DNA of 14,898 nt, from IMG/VR virus record IMGVR_UViG_2663762992_000011; one strand, 5' to 3'. The notes under the pieces are model-generated. The model had not been told where the DNA came from. It saw nothing but the letters and a program-made list of their open reading frames with translations, and did not search any database. A program made the translations under genes and the position numbers. Positions 1 to 13,886 of the stretch are shown here, piece by piece (the stretch's first letter is position 1; every line of letters starts with the position of its first letter). This DNA is from a virus. Taxonomy: Duplodnaviria; Heunggongvirae; Uroviricota; Caudoviricetes.

Positions 1-480
1 GAAAACGTGCTGCTGCACAAGCTGCCGGTGAAACGCCTGCAACTGGCTGATGGCAGCACCGCCCTGGTGACCACAGCGGCTAATTCAGATATTCGCGTAT
101 CTGATGTTACGCCCCTTACAAAATCCCTTCAAGCACCAAAGCGCACACCGAAAAAGCATCGTGCCAGAGTCTATATGCTGCGTACTGGTATAGAGGGATG
201 GACAGAAAATGACATTCTTCGCTACTGCCGTCTGTCTTCTGGTCGTAACTATGCAACAGAGTTAGAACGCCAGCTTGGAATCACTCTGGAGCGTATCGAC
301 GAAAAGAATCCTGATGGTATCGGAACACACCTTCGCTACCGTTTCTCCTGCCGTGGTGATGTTCTGAAAGTGATCACTCATATTAACCATCTTGCGAACA
401 TAAATGATCACAACGGACTTTCTCAGCCGGAAATTGCCGACATTCTGAAACTCTACCCGGACGCGTTTAACGCCGCTTAA
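1..480 (+). CDS. Hypothetical protein, probably 5'-partial (reading frame is open to position 1; first in-window start is GTG at 7)
   Basis: Open frame runs from the window edge to the stop at 478-480. The next gene starts 13 bp downstream with its own RBS (GGAGA). I do not recognise a family. Confidence 0.5.
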   Translation, partial: ENVLLHKLPVKRLQLADGSTALVTTAANSDIRVSDVTPLTKSLQAPKRTPKKHRARVYMLRTGIEGWTENDILRYCRLSSGRNYATELERQLGITLERIDEKNPDGIGTHLRYRFSCRGDVLKVITHINHLANINDHNGLSQPEIADILKLYPDAFNAA

Positions 481-492
481 CGGAGACTGAAA

Positions 493-1326
493 ATGAACAT
501 CGAAAAAAGCAGATTAATTTCTGAGGCCGCCCCTCATCTGAACGCCTCTCTGAGCACAATTAACGGTAATGAATTTGCCGCAATTGTCCCGGTTATTCCT
601 GGTCATATCGGTGGGCGTGAAACCAATATTGTTAGCGCAAAAGCGTTACACAAAGCGTTGGGCGTGGGAAAAGACTTCTCTACATGGATCACTGATCGCA
701 TCTCTGAATATGACTTCACCATTGGGCACGATTACTCAGTCCATAAAACAATTTCCCCAAATTTGGGGAAAAGCCCGAATGGCGCGGCTTACAGCAAGAT
801 TAAGCAGTCTGGCAGACCCGGCAAAGACTATCTGTTAAGTGTCGGAATGGCGAAAGAACTGGCAATGATCGAACGCAATGATCAGGGTCGCGCTATCCGC
901 CGTTATTTCATCCAGTGCGAGGAAGAATTACAGCGTAGCGTGCCTGAAATCGCCGCCCGCTATCGTCGCCAGCTAAAAGCCCGTATCAGTGCCGCAAACA
1001 ACTTTAAGCCAATGTGCGATGCGCTGAATATGGCCCGTGCCGAGATGGGGAAAACGACGCAGCAACACCACTACACAAACGAGAGCAATATGATTTCTCG
1101 TATCGTTCTTGGTGGGCTAACTGCTAAGCAGTGGGCGCGGATAAATGGCTATTCTGGCGAACCTCGCGACCATATGAACGCAGAACAGCTTGAGCACCTC
1201 TCATATCTCGAAAGCACCAATATCACGTTAATTGATATGGGCATGGAATATGAGCAGCGCAAAGGAGAACTCACCCGCCTGTCGCAACGCTGGCTCGCCA
1301 AGCGTCTGGAGGCGCTCAATGTCTAA
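493..1326 (+). CDS. Phage antirepressor-like protein (AntA-type N-terminal domain)
   Basis: 277-aa ORF. The N-terminal segment VSAKALHKALGVGKDFSTWITDRISEYDFTIGHDYSV resembles the AntA/AntB antirepressor domain pattern, from memory of the family and not from a search. RBS-like GGAGA lies upstream of the ATG at 493. Confidence 0.55.
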   Translation: MNIEKSRLISEAAPHLNASLSTINGNEFAAIVPVIPGHIGGRETNIVSAKALHKALGVGKDFSTWITDRISEYDFTIGHDYSVHKTISPNLGKSPNGAAYSKIKQSGRPGKDYLLSVGMAKELAMIERNDQGRAIRRYFIQCEEELQRSVPEIAARYRRQLKARISAANNFKPMCDALNMARAEMGKTTQQHHYTNESNMISRIVLGGLTAKQWARINGYSGEPRDHMNAEQLEHLSYLESTNITLIDMGMEYEQRKGELTRLSQRWLAKRLEALNV

Positions 1327-1498
1327 GCCAACAGGAACACCACAACCACAAAAACGCTACAAAGATGCCCACGGAGCACTCGTTACTGTCGAAAGCGTGT
1401 CTCACAACCGAGTGACGTTTTATCGCGACGGGTATCAATCGCCATGCGTACAACCGCTGGCACGTTTCATGAAGGAGTTCGCGGAGGTTAACCAATGA
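1319..1498 (+). CDS. Small hypothetical protein (59 aa), possibly a conserved small prophage protein (DUF4222-like; tentative)
   Basis: ATG at 1319 overlaps the stop of the upstream gene (ATGTCTAA), suggesting translational coupling. Protein is MSKPTGTPQPQKRYKDAHGALVTVESVSHNRVTFYRDGYQSPCVQPLARFMKEFAEVNQ. Below the 60-aa cut-off as a separate ORF; appears in the track only as part of the longer frame 1232..1498. Confidence 0.4.
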   Translation: MSKPTGTPQPQKRYKDAHGALVTVESVSHNRVTFYRDGYQSPCVQPLARFMKEFAEVNQ

Positions 1499-1916
1499 TA
1501 CCCGTCCAGAAGAAGACATTTTCACTGGCTGGTATGTCGCCAAAATCCAGCAATATGACGGCAAAGTCAGGCATTAATACAGCAGATGCAAGCAAAGTTT
1601 ATCATTTGCTGGTGGTCGGAACGGATGCCTTAACCATACCAGAAATCACGGGCGATGATGTTAGCGTTGAGAAGGTCAGCGGCTGCGCCAGAGAATTTCT
1701 GGTCGTAGATGACCTGTTCTGCTCGTGTAGTGACTCCACAAAAACATTCGTCCACGCGCGTGACGTTAACGAAATGAGCGCGATGTACTGTGCTTCTGGT
1801 TCTTCCAATAGTGAGTTTTCGGAGTCCATAAAAAAGAGCTTGCCGTTATGCGGCAACACGGTTTATGGTTATAAGGCACCTCATAAAACGGGTGCCGGGA
1901 TTGGCGTCCTGGTAAA

Positions 1917-1924
1917 TCGAATGG
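1917..1924 (+). promoter_or_regulatory. seqA-like site (TCGAATGG), complementary to the seqB-like element at 2060-2067
   Basis: Exact 8-nt match to the reverse complement of CCATTCGA at 2060-2067. A second copy overlaps the downstream RBS at 2140-2147. Arrangement resembles P4 seqA-seqB-seqC. Confidence 0.35.
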
Positions 1925-1932
1925 CGACATAT

Positions 1933-1954
1933 GACGCGCCGAGCGTCTTTTTTT
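1933..1954 (+). terminator. Rho-independent terminator-like hairpin (GACGC-GCCGA-GCGTC followed by TTTTTTT)
   Basis: Perfect 5-bp GC-rich stem, 5-nt loop, 7-T run, read directly from the sequence. Sits immediately after the seqA-like site. Confidence 0.5.
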
Positions 1955-2024
1955 ATGTCGTAGGTCTGACTCACCCATTTTTTGGGCGTTGGTGTATAAT
2001 CCAGCGCCTTTGTCAATCAATGGT

Positions 2025-2130
2025 GGCTCAGGCAGGGGCTTCTTCGGAAGCGCCGGTATCCATTCGAGCCGGTTACGCCAACCCTGTCTGGGCTACCACC
2101 AGCGAAATTGGCGTTTCCGGTGGTAGCGTT
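2025..2130 (+). ncRNA. Candidate C4/CI-like antisense immunity RNA (boundaries approximate)
   Basis: GC-rich untranslated segment with a GCUUC-UUCG-GAAGC tetraloop hairpin (2038-2051), a 9-bp stem GCTACCACC/GGTGGTAGC (2092-2100 / 2119-2127), and the seqB-like CCATTCGA (2060-2067) complementary to flanking TCGAATGG copies. A TATAAT hexamer lies at 1995-2000. Frame 1 over this stretch translates to a Trp/Cys-rich implausible peptide. Confidence 0.35.
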
Positions 2131-2139
2131 ACATGCTAT

Positions 2140-2148
2140 CGAATGGAG
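2140..2148 (+). promoter_or_regulatory. seqC-like site (TCGAATGGA) overlapping the RBS of the Icd-like gene
   Basis: 9-nt complementarity to 2059-2067. GGAGG (2145-2149) is the RBS for the ATG at 2157, so pairing would occlude translation initiation, as described for P1 c4 and P4 cI targets. Confidence 0.35.
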
Positions 2149-2156
2149 GCTGCCAC

Positions 2157-2351
2157 ATGCTGGCTACTACCCCTACCCAAAAACCGCAATTTATCTGGAT
2201 TATCGCCGCAGTTCGCCGCGATTGCCCGACAATTACCGCCAAAATTCATCATATTGCTGCCGAGTCTGAACGCGATGCTCGCCGTTCTCTGGTGCGCGAT
2301 CACATCTGCTTTTTTGCTGGTCGTATCCGCATGGAGGTGGCACATGATTAA
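2157..2351 (+). CDS. Small protein, Icd-like (host cell division inhibitor-like; tentative)
   Basis: ATG at 2157 with GGAGG RBS 7 nt upstream. 64-aa product MLATTPTQKPQFIWIIAAVRRDCPTITAKIHHIAAESERDARRSLVRDHICFFAGRIRMEVAHD. Its position right after the C4/CI-like RNA matches the P1 c4-icd layout. The ESERDARR...FAGR pattern matches my recollection of Icd-like proteins; not verified. Confidence 0.5.
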   Translation: MLATTPTQKPQFIWIIAAVRRDCPTITAKIHHIAAESERDARRSLVRDHICFFAGRIRMEVAHD

Positions 2352-2562
2352 AACCTACGATGTGCATATGGATCCCCTCGAACGCACAAGCCAGATCATC
2401 ACACTGACAGAAGTGATTAACGACATTCTGGTGAGCAACTCTCCCTCACGAGACGAAAGACTAAAGGCGTTACTCGCGATATTGGATCTCGCCGTTCGTG
2501 ACGTTCATTTCCTGCTGGAAGGTGGACAAATGCCATGCAAAACGGGGGCAACCAATGAATAA
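2344..2562 (+). CDS. Small hypothetical protein (72 aa)
   Basis: ATG at 2344 overlaps the stop of the previous gene (ATGATTAA). Plausible protein-like sequence MIKTYDVHMDPLERTSQIITLTEVINDILVSNSPSRDERLKALLAILDLAVRDVHFLLEGGQ... Confidence 0.5.
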   Translation: MIKTYDVHMDPLERTSQIITLTEVINDILVSNSPSRDERLKALLAILDLAVRDVHFLLEGGQMPCKTGATNE

Positions 2563-2749
2563 CTCAATTAATACCCCTCGCCTTACGTCCGCACTTCAAT
2601 TAATCGAGCAAGCAGCGGCTGTCCTGGTTGCTGTCAGTCTTTCGGCTGAAGAAATGGACGCTGCTGATGTCGTGGATGCGATTAAAGCGTGCTCATCTTT
2701 GGTTAACGATGCCCGTGCCGAGCTGGTAATTCTTGGGGGTGAAAAATGA
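2555..2749 (+). CDS. Small hypothetical protein (64 aa)
   Basis: ATG at 2555 overlaps the previous stop (ATGAATAA). The ORF track shows the same frame from 2498; the shorter coupled start is preferred. Confidence 0.45.
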   Translation: MNNSINTPRLTSALQLIEQAAAVLVAVSLSAEEMDAADVVDAIKACSSLVNDARAELVILGGEK

Positions 2750-3009
2750 ATATCAACTTAATTTATCGTCATCCGTGTGAGCTGGAAATTGAATCATTGC
2801 TGGGGCGCGAAGAGCCATATCCAGACACATTCACTCCCGCAGATTGCGCGACTGAACGGCTTACCAGAGCGCGCACAGGTCTGGTTCATGTGATGAATGA
2901 GATTGTTCCCTCGGTGGGAGGGGAACAGGCGACAGTAATCAATAGCTGGCTACAAAAAGTTACCTCCCTGATAGATATCGGTTTAATCGATGTGGAGAGT
3001 GCGAAATGA
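2746..3009 (+). CDS. Small hypothetical protein (87 aa)
   Basis: ATGA overlap with the upstream stop. ORF from the six-frame track. Confidence 0.5.
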   Translation: MNINLIYRHPCELEIESLLGREEPYPDTFTPADCATERLTRARTGLVHVMNEIVPSVGGEQATVINSWLQKVTSLIDIGLIDVESAK

Positions 3010-3227
3010 CCAACATCCAGCTCATTGAAGCGCAATGTCGCATCGAACAGGTTCAGACTGTTTTAGGGTTCTGGCTTGAAGGGGCCAGCCCCAGCAACAG
3101 AGACAAGTTAATGATTGGCGCGGTTATGTCACTGCTCAATGGCGTACCAGAAGCTATTCAGGAAGCGGACGAATTGTTGGGCAAATATGAGTTACAGAAT
3201 CATTCAGGCGAGGCAAAACATGAATAA
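3006..3227 (+). CDS. Small hypothetical protein (73 aa)
   Basis: ATGA overlap with the upstream stop. ORF from the six-frame track. Confidence 0.5.
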   Translation: MTNIQLIEAQCRIEQVQTVLGFWLEGASPSNRDKLMIGAVMSLLNGVPEAIQEADELLGKYELQNHSGEAKHE

Positions 3228-3822
3228 TTTCTTAACTTTCCATGCAGAAGCAACGCCTGACGGCGTAAACATCATGTACCGCAGCAACGATGGCATGACA
3301 GAACGCGTTGAGACCGTCTCATATATTGATGCCGCAAATCGTCTGGATGCCGGGGATTATGACGATAAACCAGATGAAGGCATGTTTATACATCTCGCTA
3401 TTGCCAGTGGCGGCAACCAGGGATATTTCGATTACACATCACAGCATCACGTGATTATGTGGCGCTGGCTGATAGCAACAGCATTCATCAATGAAATGAG
3501 AAAGGAAAACGGCACCGTCAGCATTATTGATGACAGTGGCAATCATTCCGTGGTTTCTGTTTATTCCAATGGCATCGTCGCCATGCCGCTGTATCCAGTA
3601 GCAGAGCGCCTCGCTATGGCAAACAACATTGAGGGCGCAATGATCGAGAAATATGGTGTTGATGTCGGAACAAATAATGCCATCATTTTTTACAGCAACA
3701 TGTTCGATGTCGAACAGGGAACACTCACTTCGTTTGGGCGAGAAGTGCTTGCCGATCTTCACAACAGCTTTATTGCCGAACTAAACGAAAACGGCATCCC
3801 AGAAGCACCAGTGACGCACTAA
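3220..3822 (+). CDS. Hypothetical protein (200 aa) immediately upstream of the primase
   Basis: ATG at 3220 overlaps the stop of the previous ORF (ATGAATAA), same frame as track ORF 3115..3822. Position is analogous to the small gene preceding alpha in P4-type left operons; no domain recognised. Confidence 0.55.
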   Translation: MNNFLTFHAEATPDGVNIMYRSNDGMTERVETVSYIDAANRLDAGDYDDKPDEGMFIHLAIASGGNQGYFDYTSQHHVIMWRWLIATAFINEMRKENGTVSIIDDSGNHSVVSVYSNGIVAMPLYPVAERLAMANNIEGAMIEKYGVDVGTNNAIIFYSNMFDVEQGTLTSFGREVLADLHNSFIAELNENGIPEAPVTH

Positions 3823-3834
3823 ACGGGGGCCAGA

Positions 3835-6591
3835 ATGCGAAACATTGATCTTATCCGTCAGGTTATCAGTGCGTCTGAAAACAACTGGCCTCATGTGCTG
3901 GGCTGCCTGAACATAAATGTCCCTGACTCTCCGCGCCGTCATGCTCCCTGCCCTGCATGTGGGGGCAAAGATCGATTCCGGTTCGATGACAACGGGCGCG
4001 GTAGCTTCATCTGTAATCAGTGCGGCGCTGGTGATGGGCTGGATTTAATTAAACGCGTAAATAACTGCGACACAACAGAGGCGGCGCTGCTTGCCGCTGA
4101 TGTTCTGGGTATTGATTACCGGACAACGGAAACACCAGAAGCCACCAGCCAGAAACGGGAACAACTGGAAACCGAGCGCCAGCGACGCGAACAGGAGCGC
4201 CTGAAAAGGGCGGAGAAGGACGAACAACAAAGACGGGATACGTTTTCCCGTCAGTTTGATGACATGCGCAGAAAGGCTGTAAACGGCAAATCTGATTATC
4301 TGGTTGCGAAAGGGGTAGGTGATTTTACATTCCCCGTGTTGCCCGATGGATCTCTGTTGCTGGCGCTGGTGGATAAATCCGGCGCAGTCACAGCAGCACA
4401 GACTATTACCTCACATGGTGAAAAAAGACTCCTGACAGGTTCAGCAAAGCGGGGGGCATATCACGCCATAAACGCACCAGAAACAACACAGAGCATCTTA
4501 ATCGCAGAAGGGCTGGCAACGGCATTATCTGCCCATTTAATTCGTCCAGAGGCGCTGACAGTGGCGGCGATTGATGCCGGGAACCTGTTATATGTCGCCC
4601 AGGTACTGCGGGATAAATTTCCTTCAGCACAAATCATCATTGCTGCGGATAACGACCACAGCGAAGGAAGACAAAACACGGGGAGAATAGCAGCAGAAAA
4701 AGCAGCTTTATCTGTTTCTGGATGGGTGGCATTACCCCCGACAGGTCACAAAGCAGACTGGAATGATTACCACCAAAAACACGGCATTAAATGCGCCACA
4801 GAAGCGTTCAATAAGTCAATGTACCAACCACAGGGTAATGGCGTGAAACAGGAGCCACAGACCATTGAGGGAAGCGATTTTAAGGTTATGGATACCGACC
4901 CACTGAAACCAAGAATAGAAAGCCGCGAGGATGGTATTTATTGGGTATCTCCGAGAGCTGACAGCCAGAGTGGAGAAATCATCAATAACGAAAGCTGGTT
5001 ATGTTCTCCGTTAAGCGTTATCGGTACTGGCAGAGACGATAAAGACCAGTATCTCATTCTTCGCTGGCTGTCGTTTGGTTCTGAAACGCCGACAACCGCT
5101 GCCATTCCACTGGCTGATATTGGTGAACGTGAAGGATGGCGCACACTTAAAGCTGGTGGGGTAAATGTCACGACCAAAAGCAGCCTCAGAGCAATACTGG
5201 CAGACTGGCTACAACGCAGTGGCTCTCGTGAATTGTGGCGTGTTGCTCATGCCACTGGCTGGCAATGCGGAGCGTACATCATGCCTGATGGGGAAATCAT
5301 CGGAACACCTGAAAATCCTGTGCTGTTCAGCGGGAGAAGCTCAGCCGCAGCCGGATATACCGTCTCAGGGAGCGCGAAAAGCTGGCGTGATAACGTGGCG
5401 CGTCTGGCCTTTGGTAACTATTCAATGATGACCGGGATCGGCGCAGCACTGGCAGCGCCATTGATTGGGCTGGTGGGCGCTGACGGGTTCGGCATTCATT
5501 TCTATGAGCAGTCGAGCGCGGGTAAGACCACCACGGCAAACGTGGCGAGCAGCTTATACGGCAACCCTGATTTACTGCGGCTGACGTGGTACGGAACCGC
5601 GCTGGGGCTGGCAAATGAGGCCGCCGCCCACAATGACGGATTAATGCCGCTTGATGAAGTTGGTCAGGGCGCTGATCCTGTCAGCGTTTCACAGTCTGCC
5701 TATGCGTTATTTAACGGTGTAGGGAAACTGCAAGGCGCTAAAGATGGTGGAAACCGGGATCTAAAACGCTGGCGTACAGTGGCAATCAGCACCGGAGAAA
5801 TGGATTTAGAAACATTTATCGCTACTTCCGGGCGAAAAACCAAAGCCGGGCAACTGGTGCGACTGCTGAATATTCCGTTGAGTAAAGCAGTACGCTTTCA
5901 CGATTACCAGAACGGAAAACAGCACGCAGACGCACTGAAAGACGCTTACCAGCATCACCATGGCGCAGCCGGGCGTGAGTGGATTAAATGGCTGGCAGAC
6001 CACCAGCAACAGGCTATTAAAACTGTTCGTGATTGCGAAAGCAGATGGAGAAGCCTGATCCCATCCGATTATGGTGAGCAGGTTCACCGTGTAGCCGCGC
6101 GATTTGCCATTCTGGAGGCCGCATTGTTGTTAGGCGAGGTTGTAACAGGCTGGGATGCTCAGACATGCCGTGATGCGATACAGCACAGCTATAACGCATG
6201 GTTGCGCGAGTTCGGCACAGGTAACAAAGAGCATCAGCAGATTATTGAACAAACGGAGGCATTTCTTAATGCCTATGGGCTTAGCCGTTTTGCACCATTT
6301 CCATACACCCCGGCAGATTTGCCCATCAAAGATTTAGCCGGATACCGTCAGCGTGGAGAACATGACGAAAGTCCAATGATTTTCTACACATTCCCGGCCA
6401 CATTTGAAAAGGAGATCGCATGTGGTTTCAACGCAAAACAGTTTGCTGAAGTGTTGAAAAAAGCCGGGATGCTAACCCCACCAAACAGCGGTCGTGGATA
6501 CCAAAGAAAATCACCACGTATTCAGGGACGACAAATAAACGTTTATGTACTCAATTACCAGCCAGGAGATTACAACTCATCTGAAGAATGA
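3835..6591 (+). CDS. P4 alpha-like DNA primase-helicase (zinc-ribbon + Toprim + P-loop NTPase, 918 aa)
   Basis: N-terminal CxxC...CxxC zinc ribbon (CPACGG...CNQCG). Toprim-like motifs (ILIAEG ... IIIAADNDHSEGRQNTG with a DxD). Walker A-like SSAGKTT and Walker B-like LMPLDEVGQG in the C-terminal half. RBS-like GGGGG before the ATG at 3835. Iterons lie immediately downstream. Confidence 0.9.
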   Translation: MRNIDLIRQVISASENNWPHVLGCLNINVPDSPRRHAPCPACGGKDRFRFDDNGRGSFICNQCGAGDGLDLIKRVNNCDTTEAALLAADVLGIDYRTTETPEATSQKREQLETERQRREQERLKRAEKDEQQRRDTFSRQFDDMRRKAVNGKSDYLVAKGVGDFTFPVLPDGSLLLALVDKSGAVTAAQTITSHGEKRLLTGSAKRGAYHAINAPETTQSILIAEGLATALSAHLIRPEALTVAAIDAGNLLYVAQVLRDKFPSAQIIIAADNDHSEGRQNTGRIAAEKAALSVSGWVALPPTGHKADWNDYHQKHGIKCATEAFNKSMYQPQGNGVKQEPQTIEGSDFKVMDTDPLKPRIESREDGIYWVSPRADSQSGEIINNESWLCSPLSVIGTGRDDKDQYLILRWLSFGSETPTTAAIPLADIGEREGWRTLKAGGVNVTTKSSLRAILADWLQRSGSRELWRVAHATGWQCGAYIMPDGEIIGTPENPVLFSGRSSAAAGYTVSGSAKSWRDNVARLAFGNYSMMTGIGAALAAPLIGLVGADGFGIHFYEQSSAGKTTTANVASSLYGNPDLLRLTWYGTALGLANEAAAHNDGLMPLDEVGQGADPVSVSQSAYALFNGVGKLQGAKDGGNRDLKRWRTVAISTGEMDLETFIATSGRKTKAGQLVRLLNIPLSKAVRFHDYQNGKQHADALKDAYQHHHGAAGREWIKWLADHQQQAIKTVRDCESRWRSLIPSDYGEQVHRVAARFAILEAALLLGEVVTGWDAQTCRDAIQHSYNAWLREFGTGNKEHQQIIEQTEAFLNAYGLSRFAPFPYTPADLPIKDLAGYRQRGEHDESPMIFYTFPATFEKEIACGFNAKQFAEVLKKAGMLTPPNSGRGYQRKSPRIQGRQINVYVLNYQPGDYNSSEE

Positions 6592-6616
6592 GCTTATTCA
6601 TGTGCGTAGAAAAGGT

Positions 6617-6727
6617 GTTGGTTCAGTTGGTTCAGTTGGTTCAATTTGTAAAGAGTATTGTTTTATAAGGATTTTATTCTTTTTATTGAACCAACACTGA
6701 ACCAACAACACGGTATTTTGAACCAAC
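6617..6727. repeat. Iteron cluster 1 (candidate replication origin / crr-like site)
   Basis: Three tandem GTTGGTTCA (6617-6625, 6626-6634, 6635-6643), an AT-rich spacer (6644-6687), then three inverted copies TGAACCAAC (6688-6696, 6698-6706, 6719-6727). Located 26 bp after the primase stop. Confidence 0.75.
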
Positions 6728-7046
6728 ACAATGTGACTGAATTGATGCGCACAACACCTGGCTGGCATCAGAGAGTGTTTTACGAGACTTTCGTAAAATC
6801 CTGTGTACAAGGGCGTGACGTTTTGAAAGTGAGCAATACGAAATTTTCGTAGTTCAGAAAACAGCCCCTGAGAAGTTGTTATGCCTGTTCAGCAAACCAT
6901 CCGCATAGCTGATCGCGAATCAAATTACCAATGGAGTCAGAAGCAAGGGCAGAACTGAAAAGCGCCTGCCGTGAAGAGTAATGCGACACCATAAATATAG
7001 TTTTTAGAGTCCATAAAAAACCTGTCAAAACCTGACATACAGAACG

Positions 7047-7079
7047 ATGCCACCAGCTACTGAACGGTGGCATTTTTTT
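7047..7079 (+). terminator. Rho-independent terminator (ATGCCACC ... GGTGGCAT followed by a T-run)
   Basis: 8-bp perfect stem, 11-nt loop, six T residues (7074-7079). Confidence 0.6.
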
Positions 7080-7143
7080 GTGCTATTTGTTTCATGTTTT
7101 GCAATCATAATGATGAATGTTGCGTTTTATGAAACTATAATGA

Positions 7144-7159
7144 CTGTTGTTTTATACAG
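7144..7159. promoter_or_regulatory. LexA-box-like site CTGT-N8-ACAG (CTGTTGTTTTATACAG)
   Basis: Perfect CTGT/ACAG half-sites with an 8-nt T/A-rich spacer, 16 bp upstream of the ATG at 7175 and just downstream of a TATAAT hexamer (7136-7141). Resembles known SOS boxes such as uvrB-type; heterology index not computed. Confidence 0.35.
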
Positions 7160-7174
7160 TTCTAAGGGGGCATT

Positions 7175-7348
7175 ATGGCTATTTCAGTAAAGCCAGTATT
7201 GATAAGTGAGAAGCAAATGGAAGCGATAAAGAAAATTCAGGAGGAGCAGCGTAAAAAATCAGAGGTAGGAGTTGCGCCAACGATCCACGAAATTGCTCGG
7301 GGATTAATGGATAAGGCGCTGGCTTACACTTTAACTGGACGTGGGTAA
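7175..7348 (+). CDS. Small protein (57 aa), possibly a ribbon-helix-helix-type regulator; absent from the ORF track (below size cut-off)
   Basis: Strong RBS AAGGGGG 4 nt before the ATG at 7175, stop TAA at 7346-7348. Product MAISVKPVLISEKQMEAIKKIQEEQRKKSEVGVAPTIHEIARGLMDKALAYTLTGRG has a strand-helix-helix-like pattern. It directly precedes the large two-gene cargo operon. Confidence 0.45.
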   Translation: MAISVKPVLISEKQMEAIKKIQEEQRKKSEVGVAPTIHEIARGLMDKALAYTLTGRG

Positions 7349-7352
7349 ATTT

Positions 7353-8819
7353 ATGGCTACGTGGCAACAGGGTATTAATTCTGGTGGTTTTCTGGCTGGC
7401 ATTGGTGCGCAAAACGAGAATGCGCCAAAGGCAAGCGACATTAACACAACGCTTGGTCTGATCCGCGAAAACAATGAACTGGCTCGATCAGGTGCAAATA
7501 ACGTTGGTCTGACCGCGTTACGTGGTCTGGCTGGAGTTGCTGATATTTATAAGCAGCAGCAACAGCAGGAACGTAAAGCGGCATTCCAGAAAGGTTATGC
7601 GGATGCTTATGCGTCCGGCGACAGGGAGCAGATGCGTAATCTTATTACAGCATTCCCCGAAGAGTTTGAGGAAGTTCGTAAAGGCATGGGGTATGTCGAT
7701 GACGCCCAGCGGAATGATTTTGGCAATCTGGCGCTTAAGGCTCAGGTCGCTTCGTCGCTTGGTCCGGGTGCATTTGGCAGGTTCATGATGGATAACGAAA
7801 AGGAGATGCGTCGTTTAGGTATCCCTCCAGAAACTATTGCTGAAATGCAGGTTAATGACCCGCAGGGCTTCCAGCATTTCGCAGGTAATCTGGCGCTGTT
7901 TTCTCTCGGTCATGAGAAGTACTTCGATATCAAAGATCGAATGGAAGGTCGGGATATTGAGCGTGGCAAGTTGGCAGAAACAATCCGCAGCAATCAGGCT
8001 GGCGAAGCACTTCAGGCGAGAGGGCAGGATATTAGCCGAGCAAATGCGTTAACGTCAGCATATGCACCAACAGCAGCAATGCAGAATTACAATCAGTACG
8101 CTCAAATGTTAAAGGCGGATCCAGAGGGGGCGGCGGCATTTGCGGCAGCGGCTGGAATTAATACAAACGCCAAAAAATTAATGAGTGTTAGAGAAAACGA
8201 TGATGGCACTGTCACAAAATACTACACAGACGGAAGTGAAGAGCATGGAAAACTAAACCAGCCAATATCTGGAGATGGGTTTCGTCCAATAGCTTTGCCA
8301 ACAGCCCAAAAGATCATGGAAAAGTCGCCAGAAGGGGCTAAAAAAGCTGCTGGATTTGCATACAGAGTTAGGGATGCTCTTGATTCAATGGATACACTGA
8401 AAGGCCAGCTTAGCCCACAGCGAGTGGCGATCATTAATAATGCTTTGGGTAATGGGACGCTGGCTAACTTAACGCTCAGCCCAACAGAGCAGCAATACGT
8501 TGTTAATGCTAATGACGCAATAATGGCAATACTCCGTCAGGAAACAGGGGCAGCTATCGTACCTGCTGAAATGTCAAAATATTATCAAATGTATTTCCCT
8601 CAGCCTGGCGACTCCACAAAAACCATTGATACCAAGCGCCGGAAGATGGAAAACCAGTTCAATTCGCTGAAAGCTGCTTCTGGTCGAGCTTATGATGCTT
8701 TGCGGGTTATTTCAGCAGTTGACAGAGGGACTTCTTCTTCGTCGCAGACATTGCCGCAATCTGAGCAGGTATCACAGCCAGCAGCCAGCAGTAATTTTTC
8801 TTCACTATGGGGTGATTAA
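7353..8819 (+). CDS. Hypothetical protein (488 aa), Ala/Gln-rich, no recognised domain
   Basis: Long ORF (track 7341..8819; ATG at 7353 preferred). Its stop overlaps the start of the next gene (TAATGG). Composition is low-complexity and helical-looking with an S-rich C-terminus; no catalytic motif noticed. Confidence 0.7.
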   Translation: MATWQQGINSGGFLAGIGAQNENAPKASDINTTLGLIRENNELARSGANNVGLTALRGLAGVADIYKQQQQQERKAAFQKGYADAYASGDREQMRNLITAFPEEFEEVRKGMGYVDDAQRNDFGNLALKAQVASSLGPGAFGRFMMDNEKEMRRLGIPPETIAEMQVNDPQGFQHFAGNLALFSLGHEKYFDIKDRMEGRDIERGKLAETIRSNQAGEALQARGQDISRANALTSAYAPTAAMQNYNQYAQMLKADPEGAAAFAAAAGINTNAKKLMSVRENDDGTVTKYYTDGSEEHGKLNQPISGDGFRPIALPTAQKIMEKSPEGAKKAAGFAYRVRDALDSMDTLKGQLSPQRVAIINNALGNGTLANLTLSPTEQQYVVNANDAIMAILRQETGAAIVPAEMSKYYQMYFPQPGDSTKTIDTKRRKMENQFNSLKAASGRAYDALRVISAVDRGTSSSSQTLPQSEQVSQPAASSNFSSLWGD

Positions 8820-10924
8820 TGGCTAAAGCATGGAAAGATGTTATCGCCTCTCCACAGTATCAGGCGTTAGCACCAGAGCAAAAAGCGCAGGCTCAGGAGC
8901 AATACTTCAATGAAGTCGTGGCCCCGCAAGCCGGAGAAAGTGTAGAGCAGGCTAAGCAGGCTTTTTATGCTGCCTATCCACTACCATCAACGAATGAAAT
9001 AGACCGATCCCAATCAGCAACTCAAAATATTCAACATACATCATCTGATAATTCTCTTGCGTCAGGGTATGCAAAGTTAGCTACTCAGCAAAGAGAGGGG
9101 CTTGAGCGTTCAGCAGAACAGGGAGCCAGTCTTGGGGCTGCTATGCGCGATGCTATAACAGGCGAAAGCCGAATGACTCCAGAGATGGAGAGACTGCAAA
9201 ATGTCGACCTTGCCCCAGAGTTAACCTCACTCAGCATGGATGCTCTAAAAGCTCGATGGTCTCAACTTTTCGGCTCTGACGCATCTCAGGAAAAGATTCT
9301 TCAGAGCATGGGAGCGAAATTAAGGCAGGATGAGAAGGGTAACACTATCGTTTCCCTGCCATCCGGTGATTATGCTCTGAACAAGCCGGGTTTATCGCCG
9401 CAAGACGTGGCATCGTTTCTGGCTAATGCGCTGGCGTTTACACCAGCGGGCAGGGCTGGAACGGTGCTTGGTGCCATAGGAAAATCAGCAGCTACAGATT
9501 TAGCACTACAGGGAGCCACCAGCCTTGCTGGTGGAGAAGATATTGATCCGTTACAAACGGTAATTTCTGCTGGCATTGGTGGTATTGGTAAGGGGCTGGA
9601 AAATACAGCGAGTGCGGTTTCGAGGGCTGTTCGTGGTGATATGTCGCCTGAAGCAAAGGCTGCTGTCAACTTTGCATCGGAAAGAAATCTGCCGTTAATG
9701 ACCAGTGACATGCTGAAAGATAAAACCTTTATGCAGAGTCAGGCTCAGACATTAGGCGAAAGAGTTCCTTTTTTTGGAACCGGTAAGAATCGGCTGAATC
9801 AACAACAAGCACGAGAAAATTTAGTCAGAACATTTAGCGATGGTCTGGGTGGCATTTCTGATAAACAGCTTTATGAATCTGCGACTAAAGGGCAACAAAA
9901 ATTCATTGAGGCAGCAGGAAAGCGATATAACCGCATAATTGACGCTATGGGGGATACCCCTGTCGATCTCTCAAACACGGTAAAAGCTATCGACAATCAG
10001 ATTGCCGTGTTAAGCCGCCCGGGAAAATCTCAGGATAGAGCCGCGGTAAAAGTCTTGCAGCAATTTAAAGACGATATCACCAGCGGACCAAATGACCTGC
10101 GTCTGGCGAGGGAAAACAGAACCGATCTTCGAAAGCGATTTATGGCGTCATCTGACACTGTTGATAAAGATACGCTCCAGAAAGCCAGCGATATTATCTA
10201 CAAGGCATATACGGCGGATATGAAAAAAGCCGTAGCCAAAAATCTTGGAGCAGACGAAGCCATTAATATGGCAAGGGTTGATCGCTCATGGTCTAAATTC
10301 AATGACATGATGGGAAGAACGCGCGTTCAAAAGGCAATAGCCAGCGGCAAGGCCACGCCTGAGGATGTAACAAAACTCGTTTTTAGCCAAAGCCCATCAG
10401 AACGTTCTCAGCTTTACAGGCTTCTGGATGACAATGGTAGGCAAAACGCACGAGCAGCCATAGTTCAGAATGCTGTAGATAAGGCGACTGATCCGTCTGG
10501 AAATATCAGTGTTGAGAAGTTTATTAATGCGTTACACCGGAACAGGAAGCAATCAGCAACTTTCTTTAAAGGCGTACATGGAAAGGAACTGGACGGCGTT
10601 ATTAAATACCTCAACGATACAAGACACGCGGCAAAAGCGAACGTTCAAAACTTAAATGGTCAGCAGCTTTATGGATTGTTAGTTGGTGGTGGCATCATAA
10701 ACGCAGCAGTATTAGCGGGGATGCTAAAAACGGCTGCGTTTGTTGTTCCTGCTGCTGGTGCCGTAGGCGGAGCCGCGAAGGCATACGAAAGCCCTGTTAT
10801 ACGAAATGCCTTGTTACGTCTGGCAAATACGCCAAAAGGTAGCACAGCATATGACAGAGCGATCAGTACGGTCACACAATCACTGACCACAGCAGCACAA
10901 GCATCGCAAAAGGAAGCTCAATAA
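8819..10924 (+). CDS. Hypothetical protein (701 aa) with a C-terminal Gly/Ala-rich hydrophobic hairpin-like segment
   Basis: Long ORF coupled to the upstream gene. Near the C-terminus, LLVGGGIINAAVLAGMLKTAAFVVPAAGAVGGAA forms two hydrophobic Gly/Ala-zipper stretches split by KT. The rest is hydrophilic and Ala/Gln/Lys-rich. No family recognised. Confidence 0.75.
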   Translation: MAKAWKDVIASPQYQALAPEQKAQAQEQYFNEVVAPQAGESVEQAKQAFYAAYPLPSTNEIDRSQSATQNIQHTSSDNSLASGYAKLATQQREGLERSAEQGASLGAAMRDAITGESRMTPEMERLQNVDLAPELTSLSMDALKARWSQLFGSDASQEKILQSMGAKLRQDEKGNTIVSLPSGDYALNKPGLSPQDVASFLANALAFTPAGRAGTVLGAIGKSAATDLALQGATSLAGGEDIDPLQTVISAGIGGIGKGLENTASAVSRAVRGDMSPEAKAAVNFASERNLPLMTSDMLKDKTFMQSQAQTLGERVPFFGTGKNRLNQQQARENLVRTFSDGLGGISDKQLYESATKGQQKFIEAAGKRYNRIIDAMGDTPVDLSNTVKAIDNQIAVLSRPGKSQDRAAVKVLQQFKDDITSGPNDLRLARENRTDLRKRFMASSDTVDKDTLQKASDIIYKAYTADMKKAVAKNLGADEAINMARVDRSWSKFNDMMGRTRVQKAIASGKATPEDVTKLVFSQSPSERSQLYRLLDDNGRQNARAAIVQNAVDKATDPSGNISVEKFINALHRNRKQSATFFKGVHGKELDGVIKYLNDTRHAAKANVQNLNGQQLYGLLVGGGIINAAVLAGMLKTAAFVVPAAGAVGGAAKAYESPVIRNALLRLANTPKGSTAYDRAISTVTQSLTTAAQASQKEAQ

Positions 10925-10985
10925 CAGATGACCATGGATGGTTGGTTATAATAGTAATTAGTATTTTTTCAAATAGTTATGAACA

Positions 10986-11384
10986 TTAACACTTGCCTTT
11001 AACATTGCCGACAAATGAGCCTGTAAATGAGCCTATATCAGATCGACTAATTGTTCGTGTATGGATCACTTTTCCGTCATTTGAGATTGCCCATGTGACA
11101 AGCGTCAGTTGACCATCTCGATAGCTTCTCCCCATCATGGCATTCGGAGATAGCGGGTAATAATCAATACCTCCACCTATACCATCTTTTGCCAAGATAA
11201 GATCCGCCTTCTCTTTACTTATTACCAAATGAAATGTATCTGGTATAGATGATAACTTATAGTTATACCCATCTGAACTTGAGGCTTCTTGTCCTTTCAG
11301 ATCACCAATAATCCAGCATTCAGCGTTCGCTCCAAAAGAAGCAAATAATAAACCGGAGACAACCAATCGCTTCAATTGATTCAC
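10986..11384 (-). CDS. Small secreted (signal-peptide) protein, about 132 aa precursor, function unknown
   Basis: Minus-strand ORF (track 10986..11453). Preferred start is GTG at 11384, preceded by AAAGGGAGGG with a 5-nt spacer, giving a textbook signal peptide MNQLKRLVVSGLLFASFGANA followed by ECW. AT-rich gene, convergent with the 701-aa gene. Confidence 0.55.
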   Translation of the reverse strand: MNQLKRLVVSGLLFASFGANAECWIIGDLKGQEASSSDGYNYKLSSIPDTFHLVISKEKADLILAKDGIGGGIDYYPLSPNAMMGRSYRDGQLTLVTWAISNDGKVIHTRTISRSDIGSFTGSFVGNVKGKC

Positions 11385-11500
11385 ACCAACCCTCCCTTTA
11401 GCGTTGTTTAGAATGGCAATCATCATATATCCAAGACATGGCATTTGGTACATAGCTTGGGTCGGGATTTCAAATCCGCTCCCAGTTGATGGGGCCGTTA

Positions 11501-11935
11501 CAGTACGCGCATATCCGCTTTATGTGAAACAGGAAGATTTTTCTGATATCACTGCCACAGCAAAACACCAATTTCGTGACCAGTACGCGCGCGAGGGGTA
11601 TCAGTTGCAAAAATTTTGCAACTACGTCCGACCAGTACGCACACAATGGCGGGGAGCACCATAAAAGCGTTCTCTACATGAGACAGAGTGGTGGTGATGT
11701 GTTGATTATCGGCGTATATGCGCACAGGACGCGCTATGACAATGTTTTATGCGGGTACACCAATCACATGTATCTGGTGTGATAAATCGCGTTACATGAC
11801 ATCTCATGTTGTGCTGGTGGTTATAACGACGTTCTGAATCTGGCCTTTGCCTGATATTTTGCGACAAGTACGCGCGCGTAGCATCGACAGCATACACATT
11901 GGATATTCATTTTGTGACCAATGCGATAAGTAGCG
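11501..11935. repeat. Dispersed family of about 20-bp repeats (approx. ATTTyGyGACCArTACGCGCGCG); a further copy at 13502-13527
   Basis: Copies at about 11501-11512, 11572-11593, 11626-11642, 11857-11880 (containing the perfect palindrome TACGCGCGCGTA) and 11910-11935, plus 13502-13527. On the minus strand several copies translate to variants of the C-terminus (...LIPLxxxLVTK) of the small ORF 11907..12065. Confidence 0.4.
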
Positions 11936-12065
11936 GGATAAGAATTGATAAAATCAACAGGACGATGATCCACTTTTGATTTTCACTGGCCTTATATCTA
12001 TTTTCATCAATCTTATCAATAATTCGACGCTCTAAGCCGTGCATATCACCGCGAATGGCAATCAT
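11907..12065 (-). CDS. Small tail-anchored membrane protein candidate (52 aa); absent from the ORF track (below size cut-off)
   Basis: Minus-strand ORF MIAIRGDMHGLERRIIDKIDENRYKASENQKWIIVLLILSILIPLLIALVTK: charged N-terminal half and one C-terminal hydrophobic helix. Weak RBS; the start codon is uncertain. Confidence 0.3.
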   Translation of the reverse strand: MIAIRGDMHGLERRIIDKIDENRYKASENQKWIIVLLILSILIPLLIALVTK

Positions 12066-12207
12066 CTCATTGCGAACATCCGAGAAGTGGTTGGCTTAAT
12101 GTTCAATGTGTGGCGTTCTGCCTTTCATGCCTGATCCTCACCTATCGTCACCACCTGCTGGTGTATAAAGGTATTGGCCCAAGCAGCTTTCCAATGGGCA
12201 CTCATGT

Positions 12208-12663
12208 TTATACGCTGACCTTACAATCAATCACCGCTTTTAACTTTTCAGCATTGCTTCCCTGACGCTTCCACGCGCTGTAAATATCTTTATCCCACGC
12301 TTTACCAGCTTTTGTTTGATAGCCTGCTTCATTGATCCGTTCAGCTATCACACGCCCATTATCAAATCCCTGTCGAATGGTATCGGCAATGATCTTTATA
12401 ACTGCCGTTTCGTTATATGGTTTTGGTGGGATGTTCGGCTTTCCGGCAATAAGCGACGCAGCGGCTTTTTCCATGCGCTCCACCAGCCCAAGCATTCGTG
12501 AATCAATAGACTTTTCCGGCTGCCCCAGCTTCATGCGAATCGCATCAACAAGCCAGGAGGTTTTATCTCCTCCAGAAGCGAGAACAGACCGATTAAACTC
12601 ATCCTGCAATTCAGATGGGATGCGGAACGCGACCAGATTAGATTTGCTCATTGCAAAGACCAT
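12208..12663 (-). CDS. Ribbon-helix-helix DNA-binding protein with a C-terminal extension (about 147-151 aa)
   Basis: N-terminal SNLVAFRIPSELQDEFNRSVLASGGDKTSWLVDAIRMKL fits the RHH (Arc/CopG-like) strand-helix-helix pattern. The C-terminal IAERINEAGYQTKAGKAWDKDIYSAWKRQG resembles the DNA-binding helix motif seen in recombinase-type domains (tentative). Start is ambiguous between ATG 12663 and ATG 12651. Confidence 0.6.
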   Translation of the reverse strand: MVFAMSKSNLVAFRIPSELQDEFNRSVLASGGDKTSWLVDAIRMKLGQPEKSIDSRMLGLVERMEKAAASLIAGKPNIPPKPYNETAVIKIIADTIRQGFDNGRVIAERINEAGYQTKAGKAWDKDIYSAWKRQGSNAEKLKAVIDCKVSV

Positions 12664-12680
12664 ATCAGTGAGTAATATCC

Positions 12681-12712
12681 ATACAGTATACCACTGTATA
12701 ACACTGTTATAC
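12681..12712. promoter_or_regulatory. Operator-like repeats upstream of the RHH gene (ACAGT-N5-ACTGT inverted repeat plus direct ACTGT(T)ATA repeats)
   Basis: ACAGT (12683-12687) and ACTGT (12693-12697) are inverted; ACTGTATA (12693-12700) and ACTGTTATA (12703-12711) are direct. They sit in the leader of the minus-strand RHH gene. Confidence 0.3.
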
Positions 12713-12765
12713 GCTCAAATATCAGCCAGAAAATAACGGACCAATCACAAATCTATCGCTGTGTT

Positions 12766-12886
12766 GTTGGTTCAGAGCTGGGCTGTGTTGGTTCAAAATG
12801 AGTTGATGTTGGTTCAATATTTTAGAAAAAACACAATAAAAACAACGCTCTTTACAAATTGAACCAACTGAACCAACTGAACCAAC
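12766..12886. repeat. Iteron cluster 2 (candidate crr/ori-like site), mirror image of cluster 1
   Basis: Three spaced GTTGGTTCA (12766-12774, 12787-12795, 12808-12816), an AT-rich spacer (12817-12859), then three tandem TGAACCAAC (12860-12868, 12869-12877, 12878-12886). This is the reverse-complement arrangement of cluster 1. Confidence 0.75.
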
Positions 12887-12922
12887 ACCTTTTTGCTTAT
12901 CTATATAATCTGAGAGGCAGAA

Positions 12923-13210
12923 ATGATAAGGGACAGGAAAGCTGAAGAGCTGGAGTCAAAAGGGCTATACCGGAGAGCTGCCGCACGATGGGCAGAAGTC
13001 ATGATGCTGGCAGATGGCGATAAAGAACGTGAACATGCAGCAAACAGACGCTCTGAATGTATCCGTAAGGCGGCACGCCCACCAGCAACTACAGACAGAT
13101 TCGGAGATTTAAGACAGGCAGTTAAGCGAACTCATTCGGCTCTTGGTATGGATGAGGAAGCGAGAGGGTACTTCAGGCGTTATCGCGATAAAGATTGCCA
13201 GAGACAGTAA
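12923..13210 (+). CDS. PerC-family-like small transcriptional regulator (95 aa; tentative)
   Basis: MIRDRKAEELESKGLYRRAAARWAEVMMLADGDKEREHAANRRSECIRKAARP matches my recollection of the PerC-family N-terminal pattern (AEELE..GLYRRAA.RW). RBS-like GAGAGG precedes the ATG. Confidence 0.55.
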   Translation: MIRDRKAEELESKGLYRRAAARWAEVMMLADGDKEREHAANRRSECIRKAARPPATTDRFGDLRQAVKRTHSALGMDEEARGYFRRYRDKDCQRQ

Positions 13211-13309
13211 TGCTCTCTCTGTTTTGGCAAATTACCCCTCACTTTGAAGGGATCGGAGCTATAAAAATGGTTTTAGGTACATTCCTCAAATTGAGGATTG
13301 TGGAAAAAC

Positions 13310-13364: not shown

Positions 13365-13886
13365 TCATCGTGCAAATTTGCACTCTGCCAGCCAACGCAT
13401 TTTTTCGTTGGCGGGAATATCAGGTATTTACTGATTCTGCCGACTCACAAGGATGCGAGAACCTTATAAAACCTAATATCGCAGAGCTTAATTGTGTACA
13501 GCAATTTCACGAGCAATACGCGCGCACAGGACAACGAGCCTGAACATGGTTACACACCTCAATCATGAGGGATGTAGGTAATGGCTTCAGACCAAAGCAA
13601 CCAAAATAGCTTCGGCCAGCGCGTAAAACGCTCTTGGTAGAAACTCGATGAACTGGATGATGAGCACAACACAAGAAGAATTGTGATTATCACAATAGAG
13701 GCAAAATTATGCCCACACCTTCAATTGCGCGGATAACACCAGAAAAAACTGTGTACATAAGGGTGTACATAATCAAAAACCGCATTAGAAAGAAACCAGC
13801 TACAATGCGGCATTGAAGCCAATACTCTACAAACAGATCCAACATTGAATAACTCGTAACGCCAATTCTTCCTTTTCAGCCTTCAC

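Follow-up and report, generated by a model that had tools for sequence, protein, structure and literature searches.

The DNA analysed here, called the window throughout, is the whole stretch of 14,898 nucleotides (nt) of the virus record IMGVR_UViG_2663762992_000011 (Caudoviricetes). A sequence-only reading had pointed out in it a small open reading frame (ORF) of 52 amino acids (aa), described as an unannotated tail-anchored membrane protein and a possible small toxin or exclusion protein. We found that the 52-aa ORF represents the C-terminal end of a longer gene, of 73 codons, which has been inactivated by a CAA to TAA change at codon 11. The feature is real but mis-delimited, being a nonsense allele of an annotated gene of phage origin. 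Our overall reading, which we regard as likely, is that the window holds a broken 73-codon gene of the PHROG 6324 family, phage-derived and residing in an island of the EcCIMP1 type; that the intact form of the gene would encode an exclusion protein is our best guess, held with low confidence. The features of the gene are as follows.

11907-12065, minus strand: the reported 52-aa ORF, corresponding to codons 22-73 and the stop of the ancestral gene; its first codon is the internal Met22
11907-12128, minus strand: the full 73-codon PHROG 6324 gene, for a predicted tail-anchored coiled-coil membrane protein, interrupted by an in-frame stop (WP_001378274.1, alignment, phrog_6324 E=3e-11)
12096-12098, minus strand: premature stop at codon 11, TAA here and CAA (Gln) in the aligned relative (alignment and translations)
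12135-12139, minus strand: Shine-Dalgarno sequence GAGGA, 6 nt upstream of the ATG at 12126-12128, reading AGGTGAGGATCAGGC ATG
11913-11972, minus strand: transmembrane tail anchor, W-IIVLLILSILIPLLIALVT, codons 53-72, followed by just K and the stop; hydropathy 2.95-3.19
11979-11999, minus strand: segment of 21 nt, seven residues or one heptad, which 73-aa alleles have and 66-aa alleles and most phage homologues lack

The listing of ORFs confirmed an ATG-to-TGA frame of 52 codons at 11907-12065 on the minus strand, with the product MIAIRGDMHGLERRIIDKIDENRYKASENQKWIIVLLILSILIPLLIALVTK. It is not unannotated, however, as the exact 52-aa sequence is present in NCBI and UniRef as a 'hypothetical protein' (protein P0018 in our set), and it is not a stand-alone gene either, but the tail of the interrupted 73-codon gene. 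The 1.3 kb surrounding the ORF matched 552 records among complete E. coli genomes, nearly all of them chromosomal. In one of these, E. coli K56-43-un (NZ_CP053079.1), which is 99% identical to the window in the alignment over the locus, the Prokaryotic Genome Annotation Pipeline (PGAP) calls a 73-aa coding sequence, WP_001378274.1, at the place homologous to window positions 11907-12128. The 73-codon gene starts 63 nt upstream of the 52-codon ORF, at the ATG 12126-12128, and the Shine-Dalgarno sequence of this ATG derives from the Gly-linker codons of a longer phage gene. No good Shine-Dalgarno sequence was found in the letters preceding the internal Met22 ATG, ...CGCAATGAG.

A single C to T change makes codon 11 TAA in the window, and because of this stop the 52-aa ORF is what is left as the stretch after the internal Met22; the frame that opens at the PHROG 6324 family start codon is not intact here. 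When a 61-nt query centred on codon 11 was compared with 5426 complete E. coli genomes, the sequence was found in 168 of them. None of the 168 matched the window's 61-mer at 100% identity, the best reaching 98.4% (one mismatch in 61), and among the matches listed all 30 of 30 were overlain by an annotated 'hypothetical protein'. The TAA allele with the exact 52-aa product was met on seven draft-genome or metagenome contigs with the same neighbours, so that it is a real allele rather than an error of sequencing. A further change in the window allele, D45Y, was met in no other allele compared and would fit relaxed constraint. We consider the window copy most likely non-functional, because the first 21 codons, which hold conserved helix positions, are severed and Met22 lacks a ribosome-binding site. 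At most, weak re-initiation at Met22 would give a shortened anchor.

A word-indexed protein search for public alleles gave 24 clusters, for which every source name shown was E. coli. The largest clusters, of 152 and 32 sequences, hold intact alleles of 73 aa; other intact alleles have 66 or 77-78 aa. Two long alleles had 104 and 117 aa, and a minority were disrupted by a frameshift, a truncation or a fusion to an integrase arm domain. The fused allele, P0024, reads MKGRTPHIEHQANHFSDVRNEMIAIRGDM up to its junction with an integrase arm DNA-binding domain (PF13356); on its contig the small gene is joined or interrupted, at about codon 29, by something that bears an integrase.

Assignment of the gene to its family was based on profile searches. 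The 73-aa form matched PHROG 6324 at E=3.2e-11, with residues 12-73 aligned to profile positions 39-90 of 94, and the full-length phage forms matched phrog_6324 at E=1e-30 to 1e-37. Members include gp25 of Salmonella phage SPN3UB (YP_007010995.1), QBP28408.1 of Klebsiella phage ST101-KPC2phi6.1 (hypothetical protein) and E. coli WP_001378274.1. The family is narrow, since a profile (hidden Markov model) search of 1.84 billion cluster representatives returned merely 46 clusters at E<=1e-3. In IMG/VR we found 69 viral loci with homologues, most of them on contigs of 25-57 kb; a contig scan of genomes added two loci, in Citrobacter and Pseudocitrobacter, by a pattern-based search that may under-sample. 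Most of the IMG/VR homologues were about 100-111 aa long after frame extension, the full form in enterobacterial prophages has 100-117 aa, and the sizes met across alleles were 66, 73, 77-78 and 100-117 aa. Full-length proteins consist of four parts. They open with a variable N-terminal stretch, 25-40 residues long, and continue with a linker of mostly glycines (GGGGGGGD, GGGNGGGSD and the like); behind it come a conserved Met and a helix patterned in heptads, R.TRIE...ENQ..L...R.......E.R..DK.DEN.KW, and lastly an anchor, L.GLL.SAILVPLFIALVTK. The window gene shares the DK.DEN.KW motif and the ...PL(L/F)IALVTK anchor with them; it has a premature stop, neither variable segment nor Gly linker, and no PHROG 4293 partner of the kind described below. 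Over the shared region the ratio of nonsynonymous to synonymous substitution rates (dN/dS, pairwise Nei-Gojobori) was 0.03-0.25, dS being saturated between groups, which points to purifying selection on the family. Such values mean that the frame is conserved in relatives, and the worry, raised together with the first description of the ORF, that it might not be conserved is thereby removed.

The predicted build of the protein agrees with the first description, in which a charged N-terminal part was followed by a single C-terminal membrane helix. The C-terminus, IIVLLILSILIPLLIALVT, has a Kyte-Doolittle mean of 3.19 over the 19 residues before the terminal Lys, and a hydropathy scan of the 52-aa peptide gave no other hydrophobic segment. 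Because a single residue (K) follows the membrane helix, the protein is strictly tail-anchored. AlphaFold2 with the family alignment modelled the intact 73-aa form as one uninterrupted helix from residue 6 to 72 (mean predicted local distance difference test score, pLDDT, 81), in which the anchor segment is helical with pLDDT about 90. By prediction each family protein is one long helix, with an amphipathic, coiled-coil-like part that ends in DK.DEN.KW and then the anchor, in which PL[LF]IALVTK is conserved in phage and island homologues. The 21-nt heptad segment is bounded by GAAAAT direct repeats, as read from the DNA. Searches of Pfam, NCBIfam and PADLOC with the 52-aa and 73-aa forms gave nothing usable, apart from one SLATT match of 14.5 bits against a cut-off of 41, and a sequence search of the PDB with the family profile gave no match.

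The island ORF starts at the Met that stands directly behind the glycine linker of the phage proteins. In the same frame, the preceding letters of the window read ...PAGGDDR, a stop, and GSG-M, a decayed linker, and some alleles that lack the stop in this linker are called as 84-aa proteins. Among ten phage-type genes examined, nine (L009, L010, L013, L020, L033, L044, L046, L004 and L074) have GGAGG 6-9 nt before the conserved internal ATG after the poly-Gly linker, formed by a GGA-GGN pair of glycine codons; in several of the nine this GGA is the sole GGA among the linker glycine codons. For the tenth (L016) the script picked a different, downstream Met, and the gene is uninformative. The pattern suggests that the phage gene has a second, internal start that would give a product of about 65-70 aa, and two isoforms from one gene. 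The island gene would then be a 5'-truncated derivative, probably the short isoform of the phage protein made free-standing, because it starts at the conserved internal Met with a ribosome-binding site that stems from glycine codons.

The window itself is a phage-inducible chromosomal island of the EcCIMP1 type, which bears out the mobile-element setting that had been suspected. Positions 76-7323 are 94-98% identical to EcCIMP1 of E. coli MP1 (blastn against L088), EcCIMP1 shares several backbone proteins in identical form with L001, a relative of the window, and the integrase, AlpA-type regulator, DUF927 primase and PerC make up a backbone homologous to that of EcCIMP1. The window encodes an AntA/AntB antirepressor, an Ash-family protein, a TOPRIM-DUF927 primase (3835-6591), PerC (12923-13210) and a Bro-N protein. 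Experiments have shown that phage vB_EcoP_Kapi1 induces and transduces EcCIMP1, whose DNA-transfer genes resemble Kapi1 genes (PMC11773190). Two further features of the island define the surroundings of the small gene.

7341-10924, plus strand: P22-type ejection genes, gp20-like at 7341-8819 and gp16-like at 8819-10924 (PF16928, PF26808, phrog_770)
11888-12764, no strand assigned: cassette of about 880 bp with the small gene and a 151-aa gene, missing from EcCIMP1, flanks conserved (blastn, tblastn)

The 701-aa gp16-like product matched PF16928 (Inj_translocase), PF26808 (Phage_P22_gp16) and phrog_770 (DNA transfer protein). The ejection genes mark the adjoining region as the counterpart of the slot that separates genes 16 and 9 in the phages, and the small gene is found downstream of the gp16-like one. 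Similarity to EcCIMP1 begins again at 11459-11887 (96%) and at 12765-13006 (88%). As it stops and resumes around both genes, the small gene and the 151-aa gene form a cassette in a variable slot. At this position EcCIMP1 has one annotated gene, for a 52-aa helix-turn-helix regulator, which by position is probably alpA_1 of the EcCIMP1 paper (PMC11773190), and in tblastn EcCIMP1 showed no homologue of the small gene, the upstream 151-aa gene or the downstream 155-aa gene. The piece from about 7341 to 12700 looks like captured 'ejection genes plus accessory slot' of a P22-like phage, because in the phage Emek orf129 adjoins the gene-16 homologue as its relative, the 155-aa gene, does here.

Several observations on the ejection genes were made in passing. 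In the annotations used, the EcCIMP1-like satellite has its own gp20-like and gp16-like genes and no other virion genes, and their alleles differ from those of EcCIMP1 at the nucleotide level; a packaging role has been proposed for the satellite's ejection-protein genes in the EcCIMP1 paper (PMC11773190). The relatives often have damaged ejection genes, for example a gp16-like pseudogene in K56-43-un (L001 11511-13326), and in L006 (about 7378-11005) we read IS1 InsA/InsB-like ORFs between the two ejection-gene homologues.

In phages the family occurs in two kinds of places. Firstly, in siphophage loci the homologue lies between the tail chaperone and tape measure genes, among KilA-N or Ant antirepressors, Arc-like regulators and small lipoproteins; Klebsiella phage ST101-KPC2phi6.1 and Salmonella phage SPN3UB (gp25, with gp24 before it) have the same arrangement. 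Secondly, in the P22-like loci L010 and L013 the tailspike gene and a P22-type antirepressor (PF10547/PF10548) are followed by a divergent operon, which consists of an Arc/Mnt-like ribbon-helix-helix gene (PF03869), a PHROG 4293 gene of 121 aa, the homologue and a gene for a 107-aa protein, and which is convergent on homologues of genes 16, 20 and 7. In these two loci the homologue is found between genes 16 and 9, that is, from the gene-16 homologue to Ant and the tailspike, the position of sieA in P22. In L009 an Arc-like gene and an unrelated 135-aa gene (PHROG 5893) precede the homologue; P22-like neighbours were not seen at this locus, which may belong to a siphophage.

The partner gene is a recurrent feature. 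A PHROG 4293 protein of about 120 aa (CxxC...CxxC) was encoded directly upstream in 47 of 67 phage-type loci, usually with an overlap of a few codons, and the PHROG 4293-6324 pairs include ones whose partners are just 24-33% identical. In the remaining phage-type loci the 5' part is replaced, and the C-terminal 35-60 residues persist behind other genes. The pairing was met neither in the window nor in the other island-type loci, where the 151-aa gene lies upstream instead.

Both places have a history in the literature. In P22-like prophages sieA is located between genes 16 and 9, a plasmid with sieA, orf59a and mnt gives resistance to P22, and sieA is present in merely 22 of 66 P22-like phages (PMC10883804). 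HK97 carries gene 15, for exclusion, between those for the tail chaperone and the tape measure (PMC3594210). Since homologues were found in both the P22-like and the siphophage slot, the family occupies slots known for prophage-expressed inner-membrane exclusion proteins.

As for function, the intact protein would insert into the inner membrane with its N-terminus inside, it would be expressed from a repressed prophage or island, and it would hinder infecting phages, either by blocking genome entry or by abortive infection at the membrane level. We put forward tentatively that it may be a prophage- or satellite-expressed inner-membrane protein interfering with incoming phages. This role is favoured because of the slot position and the co-transcription with a Mnt-like repressor gene in P22-like phages, and exclusion, one of the possibilities named at the outset, is still the function we would guess first, as the P22 sieA and HK97 gene 15 slots are where full-length homologues are found.

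With P22 SieA the family shares the place in P22-like phages, from gene 16 to the tailspike and downstream of a mnt-like gene, the predicted inner-membrane location, and the location beside ejection-protein genes, the genetic target of SieA. The published SieA has 162-164 aa, three predicted membrane helices and a conserved FxRYPxEAxxFNK motif (PMC10883804). This description sets the small protein apart, which has one helix and 66-117 aa: instead of three or four membrane helices in about 160-200 aa there is one hydrophobic segment, and the FxRYPxEAxxFNK motif was read in none of the listed family sequences. The siphophage homologues, for their part, lie in the same slot as HK97 gp15. YebO-type proteins have their helix anchor at the N-terminus, the opposite polarity to PHROG 6324. 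HK97 gp15, a moron-encoded superinfection exclusion protein, has an N-terminal region that resembles YebO (PMC3594210).

A number of points weigh against an exclusion function of the island gene. PADLOC found no defence-system match for either the 52-aa or the 73-aa form. We considered the small gene as the superinfection-immunity factor of EcCIMP1 and rejected it, because EcCIMP1 shows immunity yet has no such gene. Without the N-terminal segment and the PHROG 4293 partner, the island version may have been inactive by itself from the outset. Frameshifts or truncations affect several further island alleles (P0005, P0017, P0019 and P0024), which fits slow decay. A coiled coil on the cytoplasmic (N-in) side is not an obvious geometry for blocking periplasmic ejection proteins. 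Expression in the prophage state is suggested solely by the site downstream of a Mnt-like gene.

A wider proposal, which we regard as rather doubtful but worth stating, is that PHROG 4293 and PHROG 6324 together make up an unrecognised two-protein module for exclusion or abortive infection, and that satellites of P22-like phages have captured its minimal, short isoform along with ejection genes. Such a module would consist of a Zn-ribbon-like protein and a tail-anchored coiled coil with a built-in second start, and would be placed in the sieA slot of P22-like phages without sieA and in the HK97 gene-15 slot of siphophages. Taken alone, it is a small point that the supposed hidden toxin is a disrupted version of an already catalogued 'hypothetical protein' gene. 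The useful output is the conserved two-gene phage module, exactly where superinfection-exclusion genes sit, and the placement of the window in the type of satellite mobilised by vB_EcoP_Kapi1, which we take to be a P22-like phage, with P22-type ejection genes of its own. If the module does exclude phages, it would be one alternative that fills the sieA slot in P22-like phages without sieA.

Four other explanations were weighed. The protein could be a membrane tether for the Zn-ribbon-like PHROG 4293 partner in an antirepressor (immI-like) circuit, where it would sequester or release a regulator at the membrane instead of acting on incoming phages. The pair is indeed found repeatedly among Arc/Mnt-like repressors and Ant/KilA-N antirepressors, in podophage as well as siphophage backgrounds, the overlap of the two genes suggests translational coupling and a stoichiometric complex, and the anchor module is found also behind other upstream genes, such as the phrog_1726 anti-repressor. 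These regions are, however, general hot spots for accessory genes, so that co-location may mean no more than this (PMC10883804, PMC3594210). The PHROG 4293 partner gave no match to a DNA-binding domain, and the island copy, which has neither partner nor N-terminal segment, is nevertheless intact in most carrier genomes. We consider the tether unlikely.

Still lower we rank, as quite improbable, that the family is an XhlA-like lysis accessory or holin-like protein, which would permeabilise the membrane at the lytic end. XhlA of the Bacillus element PBSX is described as a membrane protein with XhlB, a holin, as its predicted partner, and the assay of the study concerned required xhlA, xhlB and xlyA together (PMC5589764). 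Its architecture, a short coiled coil and a C-terminal membrane helix, is identical to that of the family, and there is weak profile similarity: XhlA of Pfam (PF10779) gave sub-threshold matches in 16 of 30 family members (best E=1e-5), and full-length homologues matched phrog_689 'holin' (E 5e-8 to 1e-5) and phrog_1193 'hemolysin' (E 1e-4 to 1e-5). The probable dual start recalls holin/antiholin pairs. Yet the window's family scored 13.3 bits for XhlA, below the Pfam cut-off of 34.7, and as coiled-coil and transmembrane composition inflates XhlA and holin scores, the weak matches probably reflect the shared build. The small protein differs from XhlA also in its Gram-negative temperate phage setting and its location outside a lysis cassette. 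In SPN3UB, holin, lysozyme and Rz/Rz1 are encoded at 44.4-46.2 kb and the homologue at 15.0-15.3 kb, about 29 kb off; the loci inspected had tail, antirepressor, Arc/Mnt-like and lipoprotein neighbours, and endolysins were not seen there. The island has no annotated lysis genes, and none are reported for EcCIMP1 (PMC11773190). The suggestion of a holin-like role is for these reasons not supported.

It is very unlikely that the 52-aa ORF itself is functional, as a type I toxin or another stand-alone small membrane peptide made from Met22. It resembles type I toxins (Hok, Ldr, Ibs, TisB) as a small hydrophobic membrane peptide with one strongly hydrophobic end, located within a mobile element; the exact allele persists on the seven contigs, and the codon-11 stop is just 30 nt upstream of Met22, so that some re-initiation is conceivable. 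On the other side, all 168 complete genomes with the locus differ in the 61-mer across codon 11, and the annotated relatives have a longer ORF. The 52-aa form results from a nonsense mutation and is not a stand-alone native product of less than about 60 aa; native members have 66-117 aa, with a long soluble helix and a C-terminal anchor, and the phage versions overlap the upstream gene, unlike type I loci. The missing Shine-Dalgarno sequence at Met22 and the D45Y change speak likewise against a functional peptide. The antisense small RNA that had been proposed as a check was found neither by Rfam (no match at E<=1 in 10900-13300) nor by the promoter scan, which gave no promoter-like site on the plus strand in or beside the ORF and no separate promoter signal for the gene; a novel small RNA may still exist. 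The scan for promoters and terminators around the ORF gave nothing bearing on the gene, the few consensus sites being located elsewhere. The toxin proposal was accordingly not supported. Finally, that non-coding DNA merely happens to be open here, for which one could cite the shortness of the ORF and the several overlapping ORFs of like length on both strands, has next to no probability, as the ORF matches a PHROG profile and the frame is kept across the 69 viral loci at saturated synonymous divergence with the low dN/dS given above, a conservation that already refutes it.

The small gene is flanked by two genes on the same strand.

12208-12663, minus strand: 151-aa gene for a putative DNA-binding protein, 79 nt from the small gene; the conserved start is probably MSKSN at 12651
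10986-11453, minus strand: gene for a putatively exported protein of 129-155 aa (phrog_2651), downstream of the small gene and convergent on the gp16-like gene (tblastn)

The 151-aa family was represented by 357 clusters across Enterobacterales, and the protein is 64-80% identical across Escherichia, Salmonella, Klebsiella, Enterobacter, Serratia, Pantoea and Erwinia (L082-L087). Its putative DNA binding is suggested solely by weak Recombinase-like HTH_62 matches in 11 of 16 members and by the name 'Arc-like DNA binding domain protein' in one source. BLASTP against an Arc-domain protein gave no match, and Foldseek against the PDB nothing significant; the AlphaFold2 model was helical and confident for the C-terminal half alone. 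No promoter-like site was found in the scan between the 151-aa gene and the small gene, and the two are probably co-transcribed. We also considered them as a pair resembling toxin and antitoxin, and rejected this, the 151-aa family being widespread and occurring in Salmonella and Klebsiella without the small gene. In Salmonella the 151-aa gene is located near ligB-yicG, the chromosomal region in which E. coli K56-43-un has its island. Directly ahead of the window's 151-aa gene, at 12664-12730, there are nested repeats ACAGTATACCACTGTATAACACTGTTATAC, rich in CTGT/ACAG, which may be an operator; they do not fit the LexA spacing CTGT-N8-ACAG.

On the other side, PGAP annotates the 155-aa ORF as 129 aa, and we read a signal-like segment at its N-terminus. 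Relatives at 29-34% identity are Sf6 gp38, the 'repressor protection protein' of phage 434, a hypothetical protein of HK446 and orf129 of Emek, a P22-like phage in which orf129 comes immediately after the gene-16 homologue. In those phages the relatives adjoin the cI repressor or sit just after gene 16, as a prophage accessory gene. The 155-aa ORF and the small gene share an exact 14-nt repeat, GAATGGCAATCATC, at 11411-11424 and 12053-12066, where about 0.01 such repeats are expected in 2.4 kb; both copies encode M-I-A-I on the minus strand, one near the start of the 155-aa ORF and the other at Met22 of the small gene.

Between these two genes and next to the small gene there is a non-coding stretch with repeated motifs.

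11501-11882, minus strand: non-coding stretch with four degenerate motif copies, cores at 11501-11511, 11578-11597, 11630-11649 and 11863-11882

Degenerate copies of the gene's 3' end had been noted nearby and taken as signs of a turbulent history. Short copies are indeed present: the motif ATTTYGYGACMAGTACGCGCGCG occurs at 11571-11593 and 11856-11878, with further core copies at 11501-11511 and 11630-11649, and the core GACCAGTACGCGCG had six matches in the window against 0.7 expected. By our own count the last 17 nt of the ORF agree with the motif at 14 of 17 positions. Read in gene direction, copy R2 gives QLIPLARVLVTKL, compared with ILIPLLIALVTK and the stop in the gene, and the other copies give VLPAIVCVLVGR and YARVLVAK. 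A larger duplication, in which the 3' region of the small gene and the downstream relics would be one unit, was tried and discarded; as the alignment is weak outside the core motif, just short relics are supported. The exact core was confined to loci with island-type alleles and was not met in phage loci, and the 430 bp of non-coding DNA at 11459-11887 are 96% identical to EcCIMP1 though the flanking genes differ. In the simplest reading the copies would be what earlier 3' ends of this gene family left behind when cassettes were replaced repeatedly, with breaks in the conserved anchor-coding end. The motif could also be a functional DNA site that overlaps the gene end by chance, or a conserved cis-acting site of the island (origin, packaging or regulatory). 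Related core copies were seen in a near-palindrome at 13511-13532 and once more at 2868-2881.

A separate set of repeats is located at 12762-12888, in the divergent region between the 151-aa gene and perC, for which conservation in EcCIMP1 is 88%. Here TGTTGGTTCA / TGAACCAACA occurs about seven times, in direct as well as inverted orientation, three tandem 9-nt repeats included, and judged by this layout the copies look like an operator array.

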